Part shown: positions 1,125-10,492 of the stretch, one piece after another
Position numbering within the stretch: the first letter of the stretch is position 1
Layout of the letters: each line of letters opens with the position of its first letter
IMG/VR virus record: IMGVR_UViG_2778261527_000007
Length of the DNA stretch: 12,961 nucleotides
Strand: one strand, 5' to 3'
Source of the DNA: a virus
Taxonomy: Duplodnaviria; Heunggongvirae; Uroviricota; Caudoviricetes
The notes under the pieces: model-generated
The model's database searches: none
The model's input: only the letters and a program-made list of their open reading frames with translations
What the model was told of the DNA's origin: nothing
Made by a program: the position numbers and the translations under genes

Positions 1125-1496
1125 TTATGCTTTGAAGTAATCGGCGTTGATAGCCAGGCGAATATCACCGGAGGCTGTCAGCGCTTCCAGTGCGGCTTTT
1201 TTGCTCGCGGCGTCTTTAGCACGTAGGGCAAAATCGGTAATCACAACATGGCGATCCACGATAACCAGAGTCTTAGGCTTGCCATCGGCGGACATATTGG
1301 AAAGGTTGATGATCGGCTTGCCAGCGTCAGCGGCGGCGGAGTCGAACAGTGCAAAAGTTTTGCTGTCCAGGAGGTCACCGCAGAAGACGTCAGCCGGGAG
1401 GCTTGGGGCGGTGACTTCGGTGCGGTCAAACAGGCTGGAGGCGTAATTCACGATTACGTCACCTTGCGTTACCGGGTAGCGCTCGGAAGTTTTCAT
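1125..1496 (-). CDS. Small phage head protein, decoration-like (123 aa)
   Basis: Internal ATG at 1496-1494 preceded by AAGGAAAA, the same RBS context as the capsid gene; the longer track ORF (to 1640) has a Cys/Pro/Arg-rich N-terminal extension that is unlikely to be real. Ala/Ser-rich 123-aa protein immediately upstream of the capsid gene. Confidence 0.55.
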   Translation of the reverse strand: MKTSERYPVTQGDVIVNYASSLFDRTEVTAPSLPADVFCGDLLDSKTFALFDSAAADAGKPIINLSNMSADGKPKTLVIVDRHVVITDFALRAKDAASKKAALEALTASGDIRLAINADYFKA

Positions 1497-1689
1497 AAAG
1501 GTTTTCCTTATGGAGGGTTTTAGACGTGGAGAGAGTCCACAGGGTGATCCGGTGCAACGCCGGATATAAGGACCGCCACAGAGGACAATCCGAATTGTTG
1601 GAAGATGGGAGGCCGTGGGGTGAATAGAAGAGGGCGGCATCCGCGCCGCCCTTTCTAATCTGGCTCTCTCTCACCCTCTAGGGTGGGGG

Positions 1690-1709
1690 GAGGTGTAAAC
1701 CTCTTTTTT
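1690..1709 (+). terminator. Possible intrinsic terminator hairpin (GAGGU-GUAA-ACCUC followed by UUUUUU)
   Basis: 5-bp stem with GNRA-type tetraloop followed by six T. Nothing obviously coding upstream on +, so the role is unclear. Confidence 0.3.
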
Positions 1710-1767
1710 GTGGTCACTCACCCGCCAGCGTCACGGGAGCAACCGCCAGCCGATGGGTAAATAACCA

Positions 1768-1796
1768 CAAAAAAGAACCCGGTAGGAGAGACCGGG
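1768..1796 (-). terminator. Intrinsic terminator upstream of the head gene pair
   Basis: On the - strand: CCCGGU-CUCUCCU-ACCGGG perfect 6-bp GC-rich stem followed by UUCUUUUUUG. Sits ~270 bp upstream of the decoration-like gene start. Confidence 0.45.
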
Positions 1797-2697
1797 AGAA
1801 GACAATGTAACTTACTGTCTGATCACTTGTTTTCCTGTGTAGCCTCAGAGCCTTACATGATTTGCTTTCATGGTTCAGCAAAGAAGCCACAGAGGAAAAC
1901 GGGACGCAACCAACGCCCCGGAAACCATCGACACAAATCAACAGTTTATCGTTGAGACCAGGTAACCAGCCCGGCCCAACTGTGGACCCCTAAAGGGTCA
2001 ATACAATCGAAGGAGATTCCGCTTGTATTCTGAAGAGCCGCAGTTAGCGACGCTTTAAAATAGGGCCTGTGCCGCAAGCCCTATGATTAGAGGCATTTTG
2101 AATCGTAGGAATGTCATCAACTGGCGGAACTTGAGGAGAGGACCGCACACAAAGCATTCTGGCAAGTGGAGTTGAAAGAACGCTTTGGGTGAGGGCCGGG
2201 GACTTGCTGAAGGTTCCCGGCTCTCTTACAGACCCTGACAGGTTGGCTAAAACCCATGTTTCTGTACAGGTGTGAGGCGGCAAGCTGCAAAACGGCGATT
2301 TCGACATACTCACCATATCCCACACCATGTATATTAGTTTAACACGAATGATTATCATTTGCAATAAAAATTAATTGCATTGTGTTGTTTGATATGATAT
2401 GTGAGATTGAGGGCAGATCTGGCGGCAGGTACAGAGGAGCCACACAGAAGAGGGGCGGGAGCATCCCACAGGGGCCACAGGAAAGCCTCCACGGGGTTTT
2501 AATGGGGTAAGATGATAAATGACCTTGTCACAGTGGCGGACGCGCTGGAGAGCTTTACAGGAGGTTGTAGAGGGTGGAGGGATTATTGATTGATAATTGA
2601 ACAGGTGAGAGTGTAATTAATTTTTATTGACAGTCTATAAAGATCATGTTATTTGCGTGTGCATACGCACTCACGCCCGCGCCTCCGCGAACACATC

Positions 2698-2802
2698 TTT
2701 TAAATAAAAGATTTTTATTATAATCGTTCAATCGGACTTTGACAAGTCCTCTTTCACTCTTAAATAAAAGATCTTTTATATAATATCTATCGTTCAATAA
2801 TT
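2698..2802. repeat. AT-rich imperfect direct repeat (two ~40-bp copies, ~60 bp apart)
   Basis: TTAAATAAAAGAT(C)TTTTAT..TAAT..CGTTCAAT occurs at 2698-2735 and 2758-2802. A TTGACA hexamer lies between the copies (2739-2744). Confidence 0.5.
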
Positions 2803-2948
2803 AATCGCTTAGGCTCTTAATTATTTCACTCATATATTATTACCATTAAAACCTTCTCGGCCTGATCGGCCTTACCAGGTTTTAGGCCGTAGGCCTGTTC
2901 CCACAATGTGGAGTCTCGCCTGTGTGGCTCACTCCAGACAGGGACCCC

Positions 2949-3006
2949 GGAAATATTTTCCGGGCAGGGTGGAAGATTTTTCCGGCCTGTTAGGAAATAT
3001 TTTCCG
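2949..3006. repeat. Three phased 14-bp repeats GGAA(A/G)AT(A/T)TTTTCCG at 22-bp spacing
   Basis: Copies at 2949-2962, 2971-2984 and 2993-3006, each a near-palindrome (GGAAA..TTTCC). The 22-bp phasing equals two helical turns, typical of protein-binding arrays (operator, iteron or packaging-site type). Confidence 0.6.
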
Positions 3007-3414
3007 ACAATAAGACTATATATAAAACTACCCATAAGACTAACACCCAGGGGCCAGGTCAAGATCTTTAAGGGAGTGTTGGGGAAATCGTAGATTGATT
3101 GGTAAGAGACTGATCTCTGTTAAGCGTCTTACAGACGCGCCTCTTTGGCAGCGCTCGTACCAGCGAGCAAGACCCCTTTGGAACACCGCACGATGTAAGG
3201 TGACCTCTGGGCGGCGGGGTGGGGTCCCCGGCCCGGCATAACGTACAGAACCACAACCCACAGGAACCCACCTAAACGCGCCGCTGTGGCGCTCTCTCCT
3301 ACGTAGACAAGGAAACACCTTATAAACGCCCTCCGGCGCTCTGAGAGCCTTACAGGGGCTTTCTGTGCCTATAGCACAATAAACAAATGATCGCAAGATA
3401 AATCAATAAAGTTA

Positions 3415-3443
3415 TTGCGAATCATTGTCAAATAGTGTAAAAT
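3415..3443 (+). promoter_or_regulatory. Candidate sigma70 promoter for the + strand operon
   Basis: TTGCGA (3415-3420), 17-bp spacer, TAAAAT (3438-3443), ~75 bp upstream of the first ORF. A second candidate is TTGTGA (3449-3454) / TATATA (3472-3477). Confidence 0.3.
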
Positions 3444-3517
3444 AGATATTGTGACGGGGTAGTTAATCAGGTATATAAATCCCCATCATACTATAACCAA
3501 CCCAGCAGGAGAATGCA

Positions 3518-3943
3518 ATGAGTATTTACCTTGATGTTGAAAAAATGGTTGAACGTGTCGATCAGCGTGATCTGACCCGTAAGACCCTGACAGAAACCCG
3601 CAGCCGGATGAAAGCCGCCGGACGTATGAGAGAAGTAGAAGCGATTACGCAGGCCCTTGAATTGACCAAATCCAGTGCCTCCGGCGTTATGCGCCAGTCT
3701 CAGCGCCTCACAGGTAAAATTACAGAGATGGACGCAGAGAAGGCATTAGAGCTTAAAGCAACCGTTGCGCTGTTCGCTTCCAAGTCTACGGATCTGCAAG
3801 CCTCCATTGTGCTGGCGTTCCAATCCCTCTTTGAGGCTAAAGGCGTGCCGATGGAATATGACGAAGTGATGGCCTACATCATGTTGAATGCGGCGGATCA
3901 GTTTGAGCGTATCACCGGAGAGCTACCCGTAATCGTACATTAA
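3518..3943 (+). CDS. Hypothetical protein (141 aa)
   Basis: First gene of the operon; ATG preceded by AGGAG with a 6-nt spacer. No family recognised. Confidence 0.65.
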   Translation: MSIYLDVEKMVERVDQRDLTRKTLTETRSRMKAAGRMREVEAITQALELTKSSASGVMRQSQRLTGKITEMDAEKALELKATVALFASKSTDLQASIVLAFQSLFEAKGVPMEYDEVMAYIMLNAADQFERITGELPVIVH

Positions 3944-4220: not shown

Positions 4221-4409
4221 GTGAGTAAAAATAAAGAGTTGGGGATCAGCTTCGATCCCTATGTGATGGAGCAGCTTTTCGCGTTGGCCTCCACCCGTGA
4301 ACATGGCAGCGTTCACACCATTGTTAAGAAAGCCGTTAGCCAGTACCTGAAAACCGTTAATTCCATCTCTGTTAAGGATTCCCAAAATGACAGCAGCCGC
4401 AGTAAGTAA
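4221..4409 (+). CDS. Ribbon-helix-helix (CopG/Arc-like) DNA-binding protein (62 aa, GTG start)
   Basis: GTG start preceded by AAGGAG. N-terminal pattern ISFDPYVMEQLFALASTREHGSVHTIVKKAVSQYLK fits the beta-strand/helix/loop/helix layout of RHH regulators. Confidence 0.5.
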   Translation: MSKNKELGISFDPYVMEQLFALASTREHGSVHTIVKKAVSQYLKTVNSISVKDSQNDSSRSK

Positions 4410-5049
4410 GCCATTTACCGCAATCCCGCATGACCTTGCGGACATTGAGCTGATCGGAGGCAAGGCGTTTACCATGAACATGGTTTACACCTACAGCCTG
4501 ATCAAAGGTTACCAGGACAATGGGCAAACGGCCTATTTCTCACAAGATCTTTTAGCCCGTCGCCTGGGGGCCACAGATCGAACCGTCCGCAACCTGTTGC
4601 GCGATATGTTGGAGATGGGTCTGATTAACAAGACCGGGCAGATCGGCGGCAAGACCTGCCATTACACAGTTAACCCGATCACCCCGGAAATGGTGGGAAC
4701 CCCTGAAGCCGCCAAACCTGAAGTAACCAAACCAACCGCAGCACCCCAACCGAAGGAGACCGTAGAGAATGCAGGAAGTAACCAGCCTGGAATTGTTAAG
4801 TGTGGATCTGAAAGTGTACATAGAAGCCGCCCGGCGTCGCCTGGAGCTTCTCCTGTGGACCACAGCGGGGGCGCTATTCGTCCCGCTCCTGTCCCTGTGC
4901 CAGTAGAGCAGGGGGCCGCAAACGATGATTTACGCAACCCTGTTATTAATTTTGTGGCTGGCTCTAATGTGATGATGGTCAACGGCTTGCCTGTTGAATA
5001 TCTGGAGCCAGAAGAAAGCGCCGTTGATCAGTTTGGTGATGCTTTCTAA
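4387..5049 (+). CDS. Winged-HTH (HTH_36-like) DNA-binding protein, possible replication initiator or organiser (220 aa)
   Basis: ATG preceded by AAGGA; overlaps the RHH gene by 23 nt. Motif AYFSQDLLARRLGATDRTVRNLLRDMLEMGLI resembles the HTH of phage/plasmid replication proteins, followed by a Pro/Ala-rich linker and an acidic C-terminal domain. Alternative start at ATG 4474. Confidence 0.6.
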   Translation: MTAAAVSKPFTAIPHDLADIELIGGKAFTMNMVYTYSLIKGYQDNGQTAYFSQDLLARRLGATDRTVRNLLRDMLEMGLINKTGQIGGKTCHYTVNPITPEMVGTPEAAKPEVTKPTAAPQPKETVENAGSNQPGIVKCGSESVHRSRPASPGASPVDHSGGAIRPAPVPVPVEQGAANDDLRNPVINFVAGSNVMMVNGLPVEYLEPEESAVDQFGDAF

Positions 5050-5863: not shown

Positions 5864-6238
5864 ATGGAAGCATTTAAGAACCTCCTCAATCAGTTGGAAA
5901 TTCAGAAGGCAGAACAGCGCCAGCGGGAAGCCGAAGAGGCAACCAAACAGAACGAACTCCGCAAGGCACAGGCCGATCTGTCACTGGATGAGGCTATCGC
6001 TCTGTACGCCACACAGTTGGAAGCCTCCGCCAATGCCGCAGACAGCGCCCAGAAGGGCCGCGCCATTAAGAGCCGGGGAATTGCTCTGTGTCACAAGGAT
6101 CAGGGATTCAGCGCCAACGGTCGCCCGGTCTCTCTCCTGACCAAATCCGCAGACCTGCCAGCAGGTCACCGCCGGGTAATCATTAACAAGGCAGCAGGGC
6201 GCACCCTGAAGGCTATCAAACTGGAAGGGGATGAATAA
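5864..6238 (+). CDS. Hypothetical protein (124 aa), translationally coupled to the tape-measure-domain gene
   Basis: ATG preceded by AAGGA. Its stop TAA (6236-6238) overlaps the next ATG (6238-6240) as TAATG. N-terminus is coiled-coil-like. Confidence 0.6.
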   Translation: MEAFKNLLNQLEIQKAEQRQREAEEATKQNELRKAQADLSLDEAIALYATQLEASANAADSAQKGRAIKSRGIALCHKDQGFSANGRPVSLLTKSADLPAGHRRVIINKAAGRTLKAIKLEGDE

Positions 6239-8373
6239 TGAGCGGTAACGTGATCATTACCAAAACGATTAACCGGACCATGTTCACCACGGACGGGGCC
6301 AGCTATAAAAAGACAGTTGACCGTATCAAACAGGTAGGGAAAGAGTGGGACAAAGTAGCGTCCAAGATGAAACCGCTACGCCTCAAGTTTGAGGAAAACG
6401 CCTACACCAAGATCCGCCGGAAACAGCAGGACGCCGCCGCAAAAGCAGCACTGGCAGAAGCCAAAGCCAAAGCGGCAGCAGACGCCAAAGCAGCCAAAGC
6501 ACAGATCGCAGCGGAGCGTAAGATCCAGACAATCCGCGCTAAAGCTATCCGCTTCAGCACTTCAGCGGCTAACGCCAACGTGACCCCGGCCCAACGTGCT
6601 GGACACCTCCAGGAGTTTGGACAGCTTACGCGCCAGTATCACGCCGGGTCTATGGCATTGCAGGAATATAACGCCCGTGTGTCAAAACTTCAGCAAACCA
6701 TGCGCCAACAAGGCCGGGTAGGCATGAGGGGAGCCACAATTCCAGTAACCGCCAAAGTTAACAAACTGGACACCTCCATGATCGAGGGTGCAGGGGGGGC
6801 GATCACCATTGCCGCAACTGTGGCGCTGAGCGGCAAGATCATGACCACCGGGCAGGATTTTGAATCCGCGCTTTCTGGTCTGACAGCGATCACCGGTTCC
6901 ACAGATAAGGCCGCTAAAGAGTTTGATTATCTCCGTGATCAATCCAACCGTTTGGGGCTGGACCTCCTGAAGACTTCAAAGGATTACACTCAATTTGCCG
7001 CCGCTGTTGGTGACAAACTCCCTAAAGACCAGATGAGATCCATCTTTGAGGGTGCCAGTGAATGGGGCCTTGTTACTGGTGCAGACGCCGACGCACAAAG
7101 CCGCGCTTTGAAAGCACTTAACCAAATGATGAGTAAGGGAACGGTGATGAGTGAAGAACTCAAAGGCCAGCTTTCCGAAGCTCTCCCGGGCGCTGTGGGT
7201 CTGTTCGTTAAGGCTCTCAACCAGATGAAAGGGACAACCAACCTTACAGAAAAGGATCTGTTTGACCTGATGCAACAAGGGAAGCTGTTCTCTAAGGACA
7301 TCCTCCCGGAAGTGGCGAAACAGATGAAAGCCGCAGCTCGTAACGGCGGCGCTCTGGATAAGGCTATGAAGTCCAACCGGGCAAGTTGGCAGCGCCTGCA
7401 AACCAGTATGCAGAACGCTATGAATATCTTCTTTACTTCTGGCTTTGGTAACTCACTAACCAGCGCTTTCGACGCTATCAGCGCCGCTGTTAACGGCTCT
7501 GGTGGGGCCTTTGAGATGTTCGGGCATATCGCCGGGAAAATCGTTGAGGGTGCCACAGATGCGTTTACAGAGTTGCACGACACTGTGATCCTGACCTTCC
7601 GCATTATTGAGTATTACGCCGCTAAGATGGGGATCACTGGTGAGCAGCTTAAATCCTGGGGAGAAATGGCAGCATACGCCGCCGGGGTGGCTCTGTTCGC
7701 TGGCTCTATCTGGAAGTTGGGCGGGGCCTTTAAATGGTTGTTGACCATGCTCAACCCGCTAACCAAATTGCTGGGGGTCATGAAAGGGATCGCCGCTATT
7801 GGTGGCATTGAATCCGCTACAACTGGCGGATCTGGTGGGGAAGGTAAAGACAAGCCAAACAAACCGGGCCGGGGTCCGAAAGTTGGCAAGGTAGGCGGCG
7901 CGGCGGCTCTCTCTGGCGGTCCTGTTGGCTGGGGCATTGCGATCGGTTCGGTAGGTGGGGATTATGCCTGGGATAAAGTCATGGACGCTAACGACGCCAT
8001 GTATGGACAGGACACCACCGCCGGAGGCAATCTGAAGAAAGATAGCCCGCTGGGTAAACTGTGGGATTTCATCCACAGCCCAGACCTTCCGACTAATCCA
8101 GACTTTGCCAAACCAACAGATAAAACAGGGTGGGTAAGCTCTTACTCCAATCCGGGTTATGTTCCTCCTGCGCCGACGATTACAGCGCCACAGCTTAAAG
8201 TTGATATGGCAGGTAATCCACTGATGACGCCGCCAGCGTGGCTAAACCAGCCGCTTAACGTGAACGTCAATGTGAAAGTGCAGGATGGGCAGGTTAGGGA
8301 TCTGGTCCGCTCTGAAGTTGAGACCAACAACCAGCAGGCTTTCAACATGCTGATGCAGGGCGGGCCGAACTAA
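6238..8373 (+). CDS. Phage tail tape-measure-domain protein (711 aa)
   Basis: N-terminal Ala/Lys-rich coiled coil, then a region (..ADAQSRALKALNQMMSKGTVMSEELKGQLSEALPGAVGLFVKALNQM..) matching the conserved tape-measure domain as I recall it. C-terminal half has hydrophobic Gly-rich segments (..VGGAAALSGGPVGWGIAIGSVGG..) typical of tape-measure proteins. RBS AGGGGA. Confidence 0.75.
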   Translation: MSGNVIITKTINRTMFTTDGASYKKTVDRIKQVGKEWDKVASKMKPLRLKFEENAYTKIRRKQQDAAAKAALAEAKAKAAADAKAAKAQIAAERKIQTIRAKAIRFSTSAANANVTPAQRAGHLQEFGQLTRQYHAGSMALQEYNARVSKLQQTMRQQGRVGMRGATIPVTAKVNKLDTSMIEGAGGAITIAATVALSGKIMTTGQDFESALSGLTAITGSTDKAAKEFDYLRDQSNRLGLDLLKTSKDYTQFAAAVGDKLPKDQMRSIFEGASEWGLVTGADADAQSRALKALNQMMSKGTVMSEELKGQLSEALPGAVGLFVKALNQMKGTTNLTEKDLFDLMQQGKLFSKDILPEVAKQMKAAARNGGALDKAMKSNRASWQRLQTSMQNAMNIFFTSGFGNSLTSAFDAISAAVNGSGGAFEMFGHIAGKIVEGATDAFTELHDTVILTFRIIEYYAAKMGITGEQLKSWGEMAAYAAGVALFAGSIWKLGGAFKWLLTMLNPLTKLLGVMKGIAAIGGIESATTGGSGGEGKDKPNKPGRGPKVGKVGGAAALSGGPVGWGIAIGSVGGDYAWDKVMDANDAMYGQDTTAGGNLKKDSPLGKLWDFIHSPDLPTNPDFAKPTDKTGWVSSYSNPGYVPPAPTITAPQLKVDMAGNPLMTPPAWLNQPLNVNVNVKVQDGQVRDLVRSEVETNNQQAFNMLMQGGPN

Positions 8374-8442: not shown

Positions 8443-9009
8443 TCATAACAGATCTTCTATTGAATATTTATTACTGAAATCATCTACTTTGCGTTGTGTG
8501 GCCCCAATGTAATGGAGCGTACTGGATAACGATTTGTGCCCCAATGCCTTACTGATTACGGCTATATCCTCCCCATTGTCATAACCAATCGTTGGTTTAC
8601 TCTTCCTCATGCTGTGGGTCGAAAGATTCAGCCCCAGCTTTTCCCCGGCGTAGCTAATTTCCTCATGCAATTTGGAGCGGCTCACAGGTTTTCCCTTGCT
8701 CCTGTGGCTGTCCAACTGTAAGAGGTATACATGATCAGGGTTCGCCTCTCTCCGGGCCGCTATGATGCGTTTAGCGGTATCGGTGAGCCTCACCCGGACA
8801 GATTCACCCGTTTTCTGTTGGGACAGGACAAGGTGATCGCCTTTGATGTCGTCATAACGGATAGAGCGCAGATCCGACACCCTCAGCATTAATTCATAAC
8901 CCAGCAACCAGGCGTCACGGTACAGCGTCAGCCCCTTGCCCTGTTTGAGTAGCTCAACCGCTACCGCTTTCACTTCCTGAACTGATTTACAGCCCTCTAC
9001 GAAATTCAT
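8443..9009 (-). CDS. Tyrosine recombinase, integrase catalytic domain only (188 aa; FimB/FimE-sized)
   Basis: Strong RBS GGAGGG 5 nt before the ATG. All catalytic signature residues of lambda-Int-type recombinases are present in order: R (LRVSDL), K (QQKTG), H-x-x-R (HSMRKS), H and Y (LGHKSLSSTLHY). There is no room for N-terminal arm- or core-binding domains. Confidence 0.75.
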   Translation of the reverse strand: MNFVEGCKSVQEVKAVAVELLKQGKGLTLYRDAWLLGYELMLRVSDLRSIRYDDIKGDHLVLSQQKTGESVRVRLTDTAKRIIAARREANPDHVYLLQLDSHRSKGKPVSRSKLHEEISYAGEKLGLNLSTHSMRKSKPTIGYDNGEDIAVISKALGHKSLSSTLHYIGATQRKVDDFSNKYSIEDLL

Positions 9010-10217: not shown

Positions 10218-10366
10218 GTGCCTGCCATTTATCTGTGGGTCACAACGTGAGACACAAACTGGGACACAGAGGATTTTTTAGGGTTGAGTCTTTGGCTTCC
10301 CGCTGGCATGATCCAGAACAGGGATTAACGGGACGTTAATCGCAAGCTTTTGATTTTGTTTTATTT

Positions 10367-10492
10367 GACTCGGGGTGCCCTTCTTAAATGAAGGCTGAGA
10401 AATACCCGTATTACCTGATCTGGATAATGCCAGCGTAGGGAAGTCACGGACCACCAGGTCATTGCTTCTTCACGTTATGGCAGGAGCAAACT
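10367..10492 (+). promoter_or_regulatory. TPP (THI-box) riboswitch in the thiM leader
   Basis: Aptamer (about 10367-10445) GACUCGGGGUGCCCUUC..GGCUGAGAAAUACCCGUAUUACCUGAUCUGGAUAAUGCCAGCGUAGGGAAGUC is near-identical to the E. coli thiM TPP aptamer as recalled, including the CUGAGA and ACCUGAUCUGGAUAAUGCCAGCGUAGGGAA elements. Expression platform runs to the thiM SD and ATG. Confidence 0.9.

Follow-up and report, generated by a model that had tools for sequence, protein, structure and literature searches.

A conserved non-coding gap with a predicted replication origin and two structured leaders in a satellite-like element of Escherichia coli

Satellites that parasitise phages shape the warfare between phages and bacteria as well as gene transfer, and their control logic is poorly known beyond P4, PICIs, and PLE. 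Here, we analyze a DNA stretch of 12,961 nt (the window; IMG/VR record IMGVR_UViG_2778261527_000007), which is part of an Escherichia coli chromosome (99.9% identity to strain 90-1) and whose positions 1 to ~10437 belong to what appears, from its gene content, to be a satellite-like integrative island of 13.6 kb. The subject of this study is a gap of 2,021 nt (1497-3517), which we read, with a probability of roughly 0.7, as the control region of this element, composed of a lambda-type origin, back-to-back promoters, and two folded leaders. In phage lambda, the replication origin (ori) comprises four iterons of ~19 bp inside the initiator gene O, and the genes for protease, portal, and terminase are located upstream of D. 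The Vibrio cholerae satellite PLE harbors an integrase cluster, one minus-strand cluster, and a non-coding region of ~3 kb, with the origin in the right-most quarter; a marR-like gene flanks this origin, untranslated leaders lie upstream of both clusters, and no structural genes were identified in PLE by the study of 2020 (bioRxiv 10.1101/2020.03.12.988147).

By its layout, the PLE non-coding region appears to be the closest analogue of the gap described here. Both elements show the same order of an integrase cluster, a minus-strand cluster, a region free of open reading frames (ORFs; ~3 kb in PLE and ~2 kb here), an iteron origin at the right, and rightward clusters including the initiator gene. 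Furthermore, two relatives of our element (loci L041, 7483-7788, and L044, 6064-6369) carry a MarR/HTH_Crp_2-like gene of 101 aa as one of the first genes rightward of the gap. In contrast to PLE, the hosts are Enterobacterales and not Vibrio, the initiator is lambda-O-like (HTH_36) instead of RepA_N, capsid, decoration, and tape-measure-like proteins are encoded, and tandem terminators as well as a covarying RNA of ~436 nt occur that have no described PLE counterpart. The PLE-type layout is therefore present without the RepA_N initiator, the Vibrio host, or the ICP1 helper; initiator family and host argue against membership, so that the element is likened to PLE by layout, as an analogue. This rare family of elements in Enterobacterales, with its own very divergent capsid, shares its layout with PLE, and if this layout is convergent, it would point to a general design rule of satellites.

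Two features of lambda can be compared as well. Like lambda ori, the gap contains several palindromic iterons spaced in helical phase, next to which an A+T-rich segment lies, and DnaA boxes are absent from both; its initiator resembles O in having two domains, of which the N-terminal one sets iteron specificity and the C-terminal one is swapped independently. It differs in having three sites of 13 bp instead of four of ~19 bp, and the similarity of the initiator to O-like families is weak (E about 1e-5). The left part of the gap recalls the lambda pR'-tR' region with Q and the P4 leader with its CI RNA, where a constitutive-looking promoter, an untranslated RNA, and intrinsic terminators likewise precede morphogenetic genes. 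In contrast to these, the leader described here is far longer (~830 nt with three terminators), its antiterminator is hypothetical, and neither a Q-binding, qut, nut, or put element nor a C4/CI-type RNA was detected in it.

The gap extends from the start codon of a gene for a D-like decoration protein on the minus strand (ATG at 1496) to that of a gene for a 141-aa protein on the plus strand (ATG at 3518). An earlier note on this DNA, made from the sequence of the window, had described about 2 kb without a credible ORF between divergently arranged genes of a phage-derived region. The comparative data agree: no gene, pseudogene remnant, or codon periodicity was found in 1497-3517, and the flanking modules diverge, the genes for the capsid E-like and D-like proteins being read from the minus strand and an operon from the plus strand. 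The label of a phage-derived region is better replaced by that of a satellite-like integrative element. In detail, RefSeq leaves the gap without any annotation in all 7 E. coli genomes that contain it. The ORFs present are short, mostly use TTG or GTG as start codons, and show no conservation of position among 12 lineages. A 3-base periodicity of substitutions among these lineages is absent from all 150-nt windows of the gap (all p>0.2); the adjoining 141-aa gene, used as a control, shows it clearly (p<1e-4). Six-frame translations of the gap match no PHROG family, even at E<=1. The D-like reading frame can be extended mechanically to an ATG at 1640 (1125-1640; 171 aa), compared to the RefSeq start at 1496. 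This extension of 48 codons is not regarded as real because the coding-like pattern of conservation gives way to invariant non-coding blocks precisely at 1496; it also overlaps leader hairpins and the terminator t3 described below.

Relatives of the element were found by scans seeded with the 141-aa protein, the family of which comprises ~100 clusters, all from Enterobacterales (E. coli, Cronobacter, Pantoea, Salmonella, Enterobacter, Citrobacter, Pectobacterium, Klebsiella aerogenes, and Pluralibacter). The gap itself occurs in seven of 5,426 complete E. coli genomes, in each as a single copy. An ORF-poor gap of 1717-2120 nt is present in all 22 loci with both flanking genes, and three further contigs have gaps of 1976-2022 nt; an equivalent gap between the same two gene modules was thus found in 25 of the 25 relatives recovered from E. 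coli and metagenomes. In E. coli EC24, it is located in another island beside a tRNA-Gly gene, with a capsid protein of only 43% identity and an unchanged architecture. The conservation that the earlier note had proposed to check by nucleotide comparison is evident over the whole stretch, with 18 distinct gap sequences representing ~10 lineages at 60-99% identity. The left domain (1497-2396) has an identity of 0.73-0.91 across the 18 sequences, the middle (2397-2796) is replaceable and varies by lineage in content and length, and the right domain (2797-3517) shows several conservation peaks. Non-coding blocks are invariant where the adjoining D-like coding sequence has diverged.

An informative exception is a relative from Kosakonia, in which the capsid module and a Rep homologue are just 345 bp apart and the genes for the 141-, 61-, and 62-aa proteins are missing. 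It retains the proximal ~300 nt of the left domain, including the terminator t2, and lacks the remaining gap. The proximal leader therefore seems to travel with the capsid genes and the remaining gap with the 141-aa module. Scanning the genome collection with a capsid alignment yielded this gap-less locus as the single hit and added no diversity. No match to the gap was obtained in phage DNA by megablast and blastn or in plasmid DNA by megablast. Scans of viral contigs with 15-mer and 18-mer motifs gave mostly chance matches, and the loci L009-L020 and L045-L047 are unrelated.

Among the components of the gap, a predicted replication origin at 2949-3044 is well supported by sequence comparison. 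The phased array reported in the earlier note at 2949-3006 consists of three palindromic iterons of the type GGAAATATTTTCC or a variant, starting at 2949, 2971, and 2993 in a 22-bp phase, with GGAAATATTTTCCG at the first and third positions and the variant at the second. The iterons are 13-14 bp long in the window and 13-15 bp across lineages, with 6-bp arms and a 3-nt A/T centre, and stand ~22 bp apart; other lineages have 3-5 sites. They adjoin an A+T-rich segment (3008-3044, 72% A+T), the probable DNA-unwinding element. The A+T content is 72% at 3000-3039 compared to ~47% in the flanks, and the segment is conserved as CAATAAGACTA...ATAAGACTAAC across lineages.

The iterons covary with the presumed initiator, a protein of 220 aa termed Rep (4387-5049, plus strand). 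Iterons of type A (GGAAATATTTTCC) are found in the window, EC24, L032, and L038, those of type B (GGGTCAtATTGACCC) in the group of strain SCU-316, type C (GTGTCAaaaTGACAC) in L007, L026, and L036, and type E (AGGCAAAATCTGCCT) in L028 and L030. The N-terminal ~115 residues of Rep form classes 1-4, which match the iteron types A, B, C, and E exactly. Five non-Rep proteins (141, 61, 62, 188, and 124 aa) are up to 95-100% identical between elements of differing iteron type and do not track it. The C-terminal half of Rep is exchanged independently, with two C-terminal types combining with at least four N-terminal classes. A blind prediction on a sequence fetched later was borne out, as L043 has an N-domain with 89% identity to class 3 and an array of three type C sites; divergent N-domains in L041 and L044 go along with new palindrome variants. 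Origin specificity is thus readable from the sequence because the iteron type pairs with the class of the Rep N-domain. Rep itself matches the PHROG family phrog_391 (“replication initiation O-like”, E 5.9e-6) and the Pfam domain HTH_36 (25.3 bits, cut-off 25) weakly. Since this arrangement follows the two-domain logic of initiator and iterons in lambdoid origins, 2949-3044 is taken as the probable origin. A single IHF-like site is located at 1936, far from it. An interpretation of the palindromes as a CsrA-type array of GGA hairpins was rejected because iteron types B and C have no GGA.

The A+T-rich centre of the gap carries two predicted sigma-70 promoters arranged back to back (2336-2403). 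The leftward promoter P(-) (2336-2364, minus strand) combines a -35 hexamer TTGCAA (2364-2359), a 17-nt spacer, and an extended -10 element TGt-TAAACT (2341-2336). Across all lineages, the hexamers (TTGCAA/TTGATA and TAACAT/TAAACT/TAAAAT) and their 17-nt distance persist despite unrelated spacer sequences, which is the signature of a real sigma-70 promoter. The -35 hexamer of the candidate rightward promoter P(+) (2375-2403, plus strand) starts eleven bases to the right of P(-) in the opposite direction, with TTGCAT (2375-2380) and an extended -10 element TGa-TATGTG (2395-2403). This -35 hexamer and the TG motif recur at a constant distance in most lineages; in L003, L031, and L032, TTGACT-16-TATTAG/TATTGG occurs ~20 nt further right. 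The divergent promoter core CAATAAAAATTAATTGCA (2362-2379) recurs inverted at 2612-2629, 232 nt to the right and 94% complementary; the two copies may be paired operators for a looping repressor.

To the left of these promoters, a strongly conserved, structured RNA of ~0.4-0.8 kb, so far undescribed and without an Rfam family, is predicted on the minus strand. This leftward leader of ~830 nt (1497-2329, predicted start ~2329) would begin with an RNA body of ~436 nt (1893-2329), which is highly conserved, rich in hairpins, C-rich, and G-poor. A consensus fold of local helices was derived from 12 lineages, with 500 shuffles and slid partners as controls. It comprises 148 pairs, with 95.1% of cells paired. 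Changes on both sides of a pair were found in 35 pairs compared to 12.2 +/- 2.5 in shuffled data (0/500) and 10-13 with slid partners. Helices 1-10 covary within 1893-2329, for instance 2197-2173 with 2164-2140, and compensation is exemplified by AAAGCGUUC/GAAUGCUUU in most lineages versus UGUGUGCC/GGAUACACA in L003 and L031. Folding of the leftward RNA favors the minus strand overall (-135 versus -103 kcal/mol), and by 6-14 kcal/mol per 200-nt window over 1597-2296. The covariance models of Rfam 15, including those for C4/CI antisense RNA, GOLLD, ROOL, group I/II introns, and riboswitches, gave no match at gathering score over 1400-3600, and the best sub-threshold hits were noise (E 0.6-2.6), so that the Rfam scan envisaged in the earlier note assigned no known family to the gap.

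Three tandem intrinsic terminators punctuate the predicted leftward RNA. The first, t1 (1890-1921, minus strand; -14.1 kcal/mol, z -3.3), has a G+C stem of 7-8 bp followed by UUUUCC. Its stem occurs in seven sequences among the lineages, all fully paired, including one G.U pair possible only on the minus strand. The second, t2, was already noticed in the earlier note as a minus-strand hairpin at 1768-1796 and occupies 1796-1765 (z -2.2), with CCCGGU...ACCGGG followed by UUCUUUUUUGUGG; every lineage has it, with variants of the stem. Only on the minus strand are t1 and t2 followed by U-tracts. The third, t3 (1626-1656), is bidirectional, with a stem GGGCGGC/GCCGCCC between A-rich and U-rich runs (-23.8/-22.9 kcal/mol on the two strands, z -5.3/-4.7). 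Other lineages show the compensatory variant GGCCAGC/GCTGGCC, and the corresponding helix 18 has 6 pairs with double changes. The plus-strand terminator seen earlier at 1690-1709 is likewise present at 1690-1713, where GAGGTgtaaACCTC forms GAGGU-guaa-ACCUC followed by U6 and faces t2; compensatory variants (AAGGA/TCCTT and AGATG/CATCT) occur in other lineages, and this terminator probably stops antisense read-through from the left. Overall, a terminator scan found 8 sites in the gap compared to 2.8 +/- 1.5 in shuffles. By these motifs, the RNA of ~436 nt would end at t1 and read-through species at t2 and t3.

Between t2 and the capsid operon, a long helix with 22-nt arms (1702-1776, minus strand; inverted repeat I2) pairs the U-tract of t2 with a downstream A-tract and encloses a hairpin at 1724-1750. 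Its helices 15 and 16 comprise 30 pairs that are 97-99% paired, three of them with double changes. The proximal leader and 5′ untranslated region (UTR) of the D-like/capsid operon (1497-1765, minus strand) contains hairpins at 1526-1540, 1547-1565, and 1672-1685, the covarying helices 17, 18, and 20, and the Shine-Dalgarno sequence AAGGAAAA; its invariant blocks outdo the adjoining coding sequence in conservation.

On the right side, a structured leader is predicted at 3045-3414 on the plus strand, supported by covariation. The fold of 3040-3250 has 38 pairs (96.1% paired), with double changes in 12 pairs compared to 4.0 +/- 1.6 in shuffled data (0/500) and 0-3 with slid partners. Several G.U/G-C alternations in this segment keep pairing on the plus strand only. 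The GC-rich hairpins observed previously at 3170-3300 belong to this set of covarying helices, and the invariant GTGACCTCTGGGCGGCGGGGT (3200-3220) is the 5′ arm of one of them; 3240-3400 is replaced in L030 and L031. The leader is followed by a proximal promoter of the 141-aa/Rep operon (TTGCGA-17-TAAAAT, 3415-3443, plus strand), with an invariant -10 element GTAAAATA and a -35 element TTGNNA kept at 17 nt in 12 lineages, and by a hairpin-bearing 5′ UTR of ~70 nt that extends to 3517. Both predicted RNAs look like long 5′ leaders of the flanking operons.

In our reading of the gap as a control region, dimers of the O-like 220-aa initiator would bind the three palindromic iterons through an N-terminal winged-helix domain and open the adjoining A+T-rich segment (3008-3044), and the exchangeable C-terminal domain would recruit the helicase machinery. 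The rightward RNA would traverse the origin, which it might activate in the manner of transcription at lambda ori, and continue into the Rep operon with its own proximal promoter. Most of the leftward RNA would stop at t1, and t2 and t3 would end any remaining read-through, which would keep the decoration and capsid genes silent. Upon helper-phage infection, a factor would make RNA polymerase resistant to termination or, alternatively, activate a so far unrecognised promoter for the capsid genes. With an origin specificity readable from sequence and a capsid operon behind three terminators, the region represents a compact and testable example of satellite control. The earlier note had offered four candidate roles, and the data point to a composite region instead of a single one. 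The origin is retained and confined to only ~100 nt, with iterons and without DnaA boxes. The regulatory hub is reflected by divergent promoters, operator-like inverted repeats, and tandem terminators. The proposed long structured non-coding RNA agrees with the covariation in 1497-2329 (minus strand) and 3040-3250 (plus strand) and not with one RNA of 2 kb; the data speak neither clearly for nor clearly against a packaging site, which is discussed below.

Several observations weigh against this reading. There is no DnaA box in the gap, and the iterons lie ~1.4 kb upstream of the rep gene and outside it, unlike those of lambda. The arrays of L028 and L030 consist of six differing palindromes each, which would fit RNA hairpins or relics equally well, and a type A site often precedes the lineage-specific iterons; some sites may therefore be relics or serve another factor. 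P(-) of the window matches only 8 of 12 consensus positions, so it is absent from the list of a simple promoter scan, and P(+), with its weak -10 element, is the weaker and less certain of the two promoter calls. In helices possible on both strands, the ratio of G.U to A.C is 15 to 7 on the left, which modestly favors the minus strand and gives only moderate strand support, and about equal on the right. An antiterminator or qut-like and nut-like sites were not identified, and the satellite status of the element is judged from its gene content.

A tentative alternative is that the leftward RNA of ~436-563 nt is itself the functional product, a stable trans-acting large structured RNA that serves, for instance, in immunity, against a helper, or as a scaffold sequestering proteins; the capsid genes would then depend on a promoter of their own, activated by the helper and located downstream of t2 and t3. 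The convergent terminators at 1796-1765 (t2, minus strand) and 1690-1713 (plus strand) do resemble the boundary of two transcription units. The Kosakonia relative lacks the distal part (1800-2329) and yet keeps the capsid module with the proximal leader; distal RNA and capsid expression can therefore be separated. In addition, this distal part shows the highest sequence conservation in the element and many covarying helices, and abundant non-coding RNAs are made by phage ICP1 and PLE satellites. However, the stretch from t3 to the D-like gene contains no recognisable sigma-70 promoter, no conserved complementarity of the leftward RNA to other parts of the element was found, and the RNA matches no Rfam family. 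Pairing of the two leaders in trans through the direct repeats D2, D6, and D7 was rejected as these repeats do not covary. An extension of this idea, which we consider somewhat more doubtful still, is that the leftward transcript of ~436-563 nt, and perhaps the rightward leader too, represents a new class of large ornate RNA in a new satellite family. Such an RNA would act beyond attenuation in cis, for example by sensing or titrating a factor of the helper phage and thereby timing the production of capsids, or it would target the helper in trans.

An unlikely explanation is that much of the conservation is at the DNA level, in which case the gap would hold a packaging (cos/pac) site and binding sites for the helper terminase or other proteins, and hairpins would be incidental. 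A satellite needs a packaging signal, and none was located elsewhere in the element; the gap lies upstream of the head genes, as lambda cos does; and the motif GTGAC(M)TCTGGGCGGCGGGGT does not vary among 12 lineages although its flanks do. Its part GGGCGGCG is shared with the lambda cohesive end. However, GGGCGGCGGGGT agrees with the lambda cosN sequence GGGCGGCGACCT at just 9 of 12 positions, and the GGGCGGCG motif is an arm of a helix with compensatory changes. In a non-coding context, the motif was found in no phage among 50,697 records and in no viral contig outside the family, and no consistent end of metagenome contigs falls inside the gap. Sites in double-stranded DNA also do not account for compensatory stems followed by U-tracts. 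A cos site, which GTGACCTCTGGGCGGCGGGGT had first suggested, is disfavored since this sequence is a helix arm and no helper phage shares the motif.

Decayed coding sequence or hidden small genes are very improbable: mechanical ORFs reach up to 118 aa, and since protease, portal, and terminase genes precede D in lambda, their loss could leave debris, which the earlier note had named as its refuting scenario, but the tests for PHROG matches and codon periodicity reject it, no ORF is kept in position, frame, and start codon, and the gap is more conserved than its neighbour genes and of similar length in 25 loci, unlike drifting debris.

The remaining features of the gap lie between the promoters and the origin. 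The lineage-variable segment (2405-2796) differs by replacements and indels, ranges from 170 to 480 nt in length, and has no consensus fold. It overlaps the AT-rich block with direct repeats described in the earlier note, which is present with a GC content of 0.33 at 2551-2850. The repeats belong to a tandem duplication of ~60 nt with copies at 2697-2724 and 2757-2784 (86% identical), found only in the lineages of the window, L026, and L043. The promoter scan reported promoter-like sites at 2627-2655 (plus strand) and at 2745-2717 (minus strand). The latter, a strong near-consensus site (TTGTCA-17-TATAAT), is created by the duplication and would transcribe antisense to the rightward RNA. An A+T-rich inverted repeat AATAATTAAT...ATTAATTATT (2793-2828), whose arms are invariant in 12 lineages around a varying spacer, looks like an operator. 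It is followed by a conserved hairpin block with CCAGGTTTTAGGCCG and GGAGTCTCGCCTGTGTGGCTCACTCC (2856-2935), which holds the most conserved 40 nt of the gap (0.93). The stems of this block covary without strand assignment, GGCC/GGCC changing to GCCC/GGGC and ACCCG/CGGGT. Over the whole of 1497-3517, the pentamers CCACA, CACAG, ACAGG, and CTGTG are enriched 4-5 fold over first-order expectation (z 4-5.5), and YACAGR occurs 14 times on the plus and 5 times on the minus strand; this enrichment may reflect helix arms.

The island is inserted between rcnR and thiM. A thiM thiamine pyrophosphate (TPP) riboswitch was found by Rfam scan at 10361-10458 of the window, and a 25-nt piece of it, CCTGATCTGGATAATGCCAGCGTAG (10413-10437), forms a direct repeat at both island ends. 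These att-like repeats are spaced by 13,570 bp in SCU-316 (L002 7346-7370 and 20916-20940) and by 14,920 bp in strain 90-1 (L001 10493-10517 and 25413-25437), where IS911 interrupts the integrase gene. An independent assembly contig of 13,497 nt from a relative has both ends inside riboswitch sequence. From the repeats at the island ends and these contig ends, it follows that the element integrates into the thiM TPP riboswitch, and an intact riboswitch next to thiM appears to be rebuilt by the element. In strain 90-1, the integrase gene is split by IS911 and the nearby usher gene yehB by ISKpn26 (L001 11256-12424 and 6100-7080, outside the window), and the element has probably lost its mobility in this copy.

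The gene content includes an integrase and an ATP-dependent nuclease of the AAA_15 type. PHROG and Pfam profile matches revealed no genes for portal, terminase, or tail proteins in the element, which gives it the look of a phage satellite: it is small and integrative, brings its own integrase and replication module, and has no full set of virion genes. A literature search by protein accession numbers found nothing, and the element family is apparently undescribed. The minus strand carries the capsid E-like gene (93-1112) and the D-like gene (1125-1496), whose assignment as a decoration gene is weak. The capsid E-like protein has at most 24% identity to any relative among the 50,697 phage records, the best being that of Pseudomonas phage VCM. 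Two capsid alleles, only ~43% identical, are swapped between otherwise similar elements of the family. The plus-strand operon starts with the 141-aa gene and encodes proteins of 141, 61, and 62 aa, the 220-aa Rep, a DNA-binding protein of 188 aa, and proteins of 124 and 711 aa. For the 141-aa protein, AlphaFold gives a confident, all-helical model (pLDDT 85.7) that has no match in PDB or BFVD. The 711-aa TMP_3 tape-measure-like protein (6238-8373, plus strand) is 37-39% identical to those of the Pectobacterium phiTE/CB7 and Cronobacter CR3 myoviruses. A tape measure is odd in an element without tail genes, and its upstream neighbour, the 124-aa protein (5864-6238, plus strand), matches PF26210 (Phage_phiTE_211). 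The tape-measure-like protein gives a hint of a Vequintavirinae-like helper or of a role in disturbing tail assembly. A tyrosine-recombinase ORF of 188 aa (8443-9009) lies at the island's right end; it is 99-100% identical in most lineages and distinct from the full-length integrase of 452 aa, which is encoded at the left end. This ORF may represent a remnant, or else an additional small recombinase or a partner resembling an excisionase.

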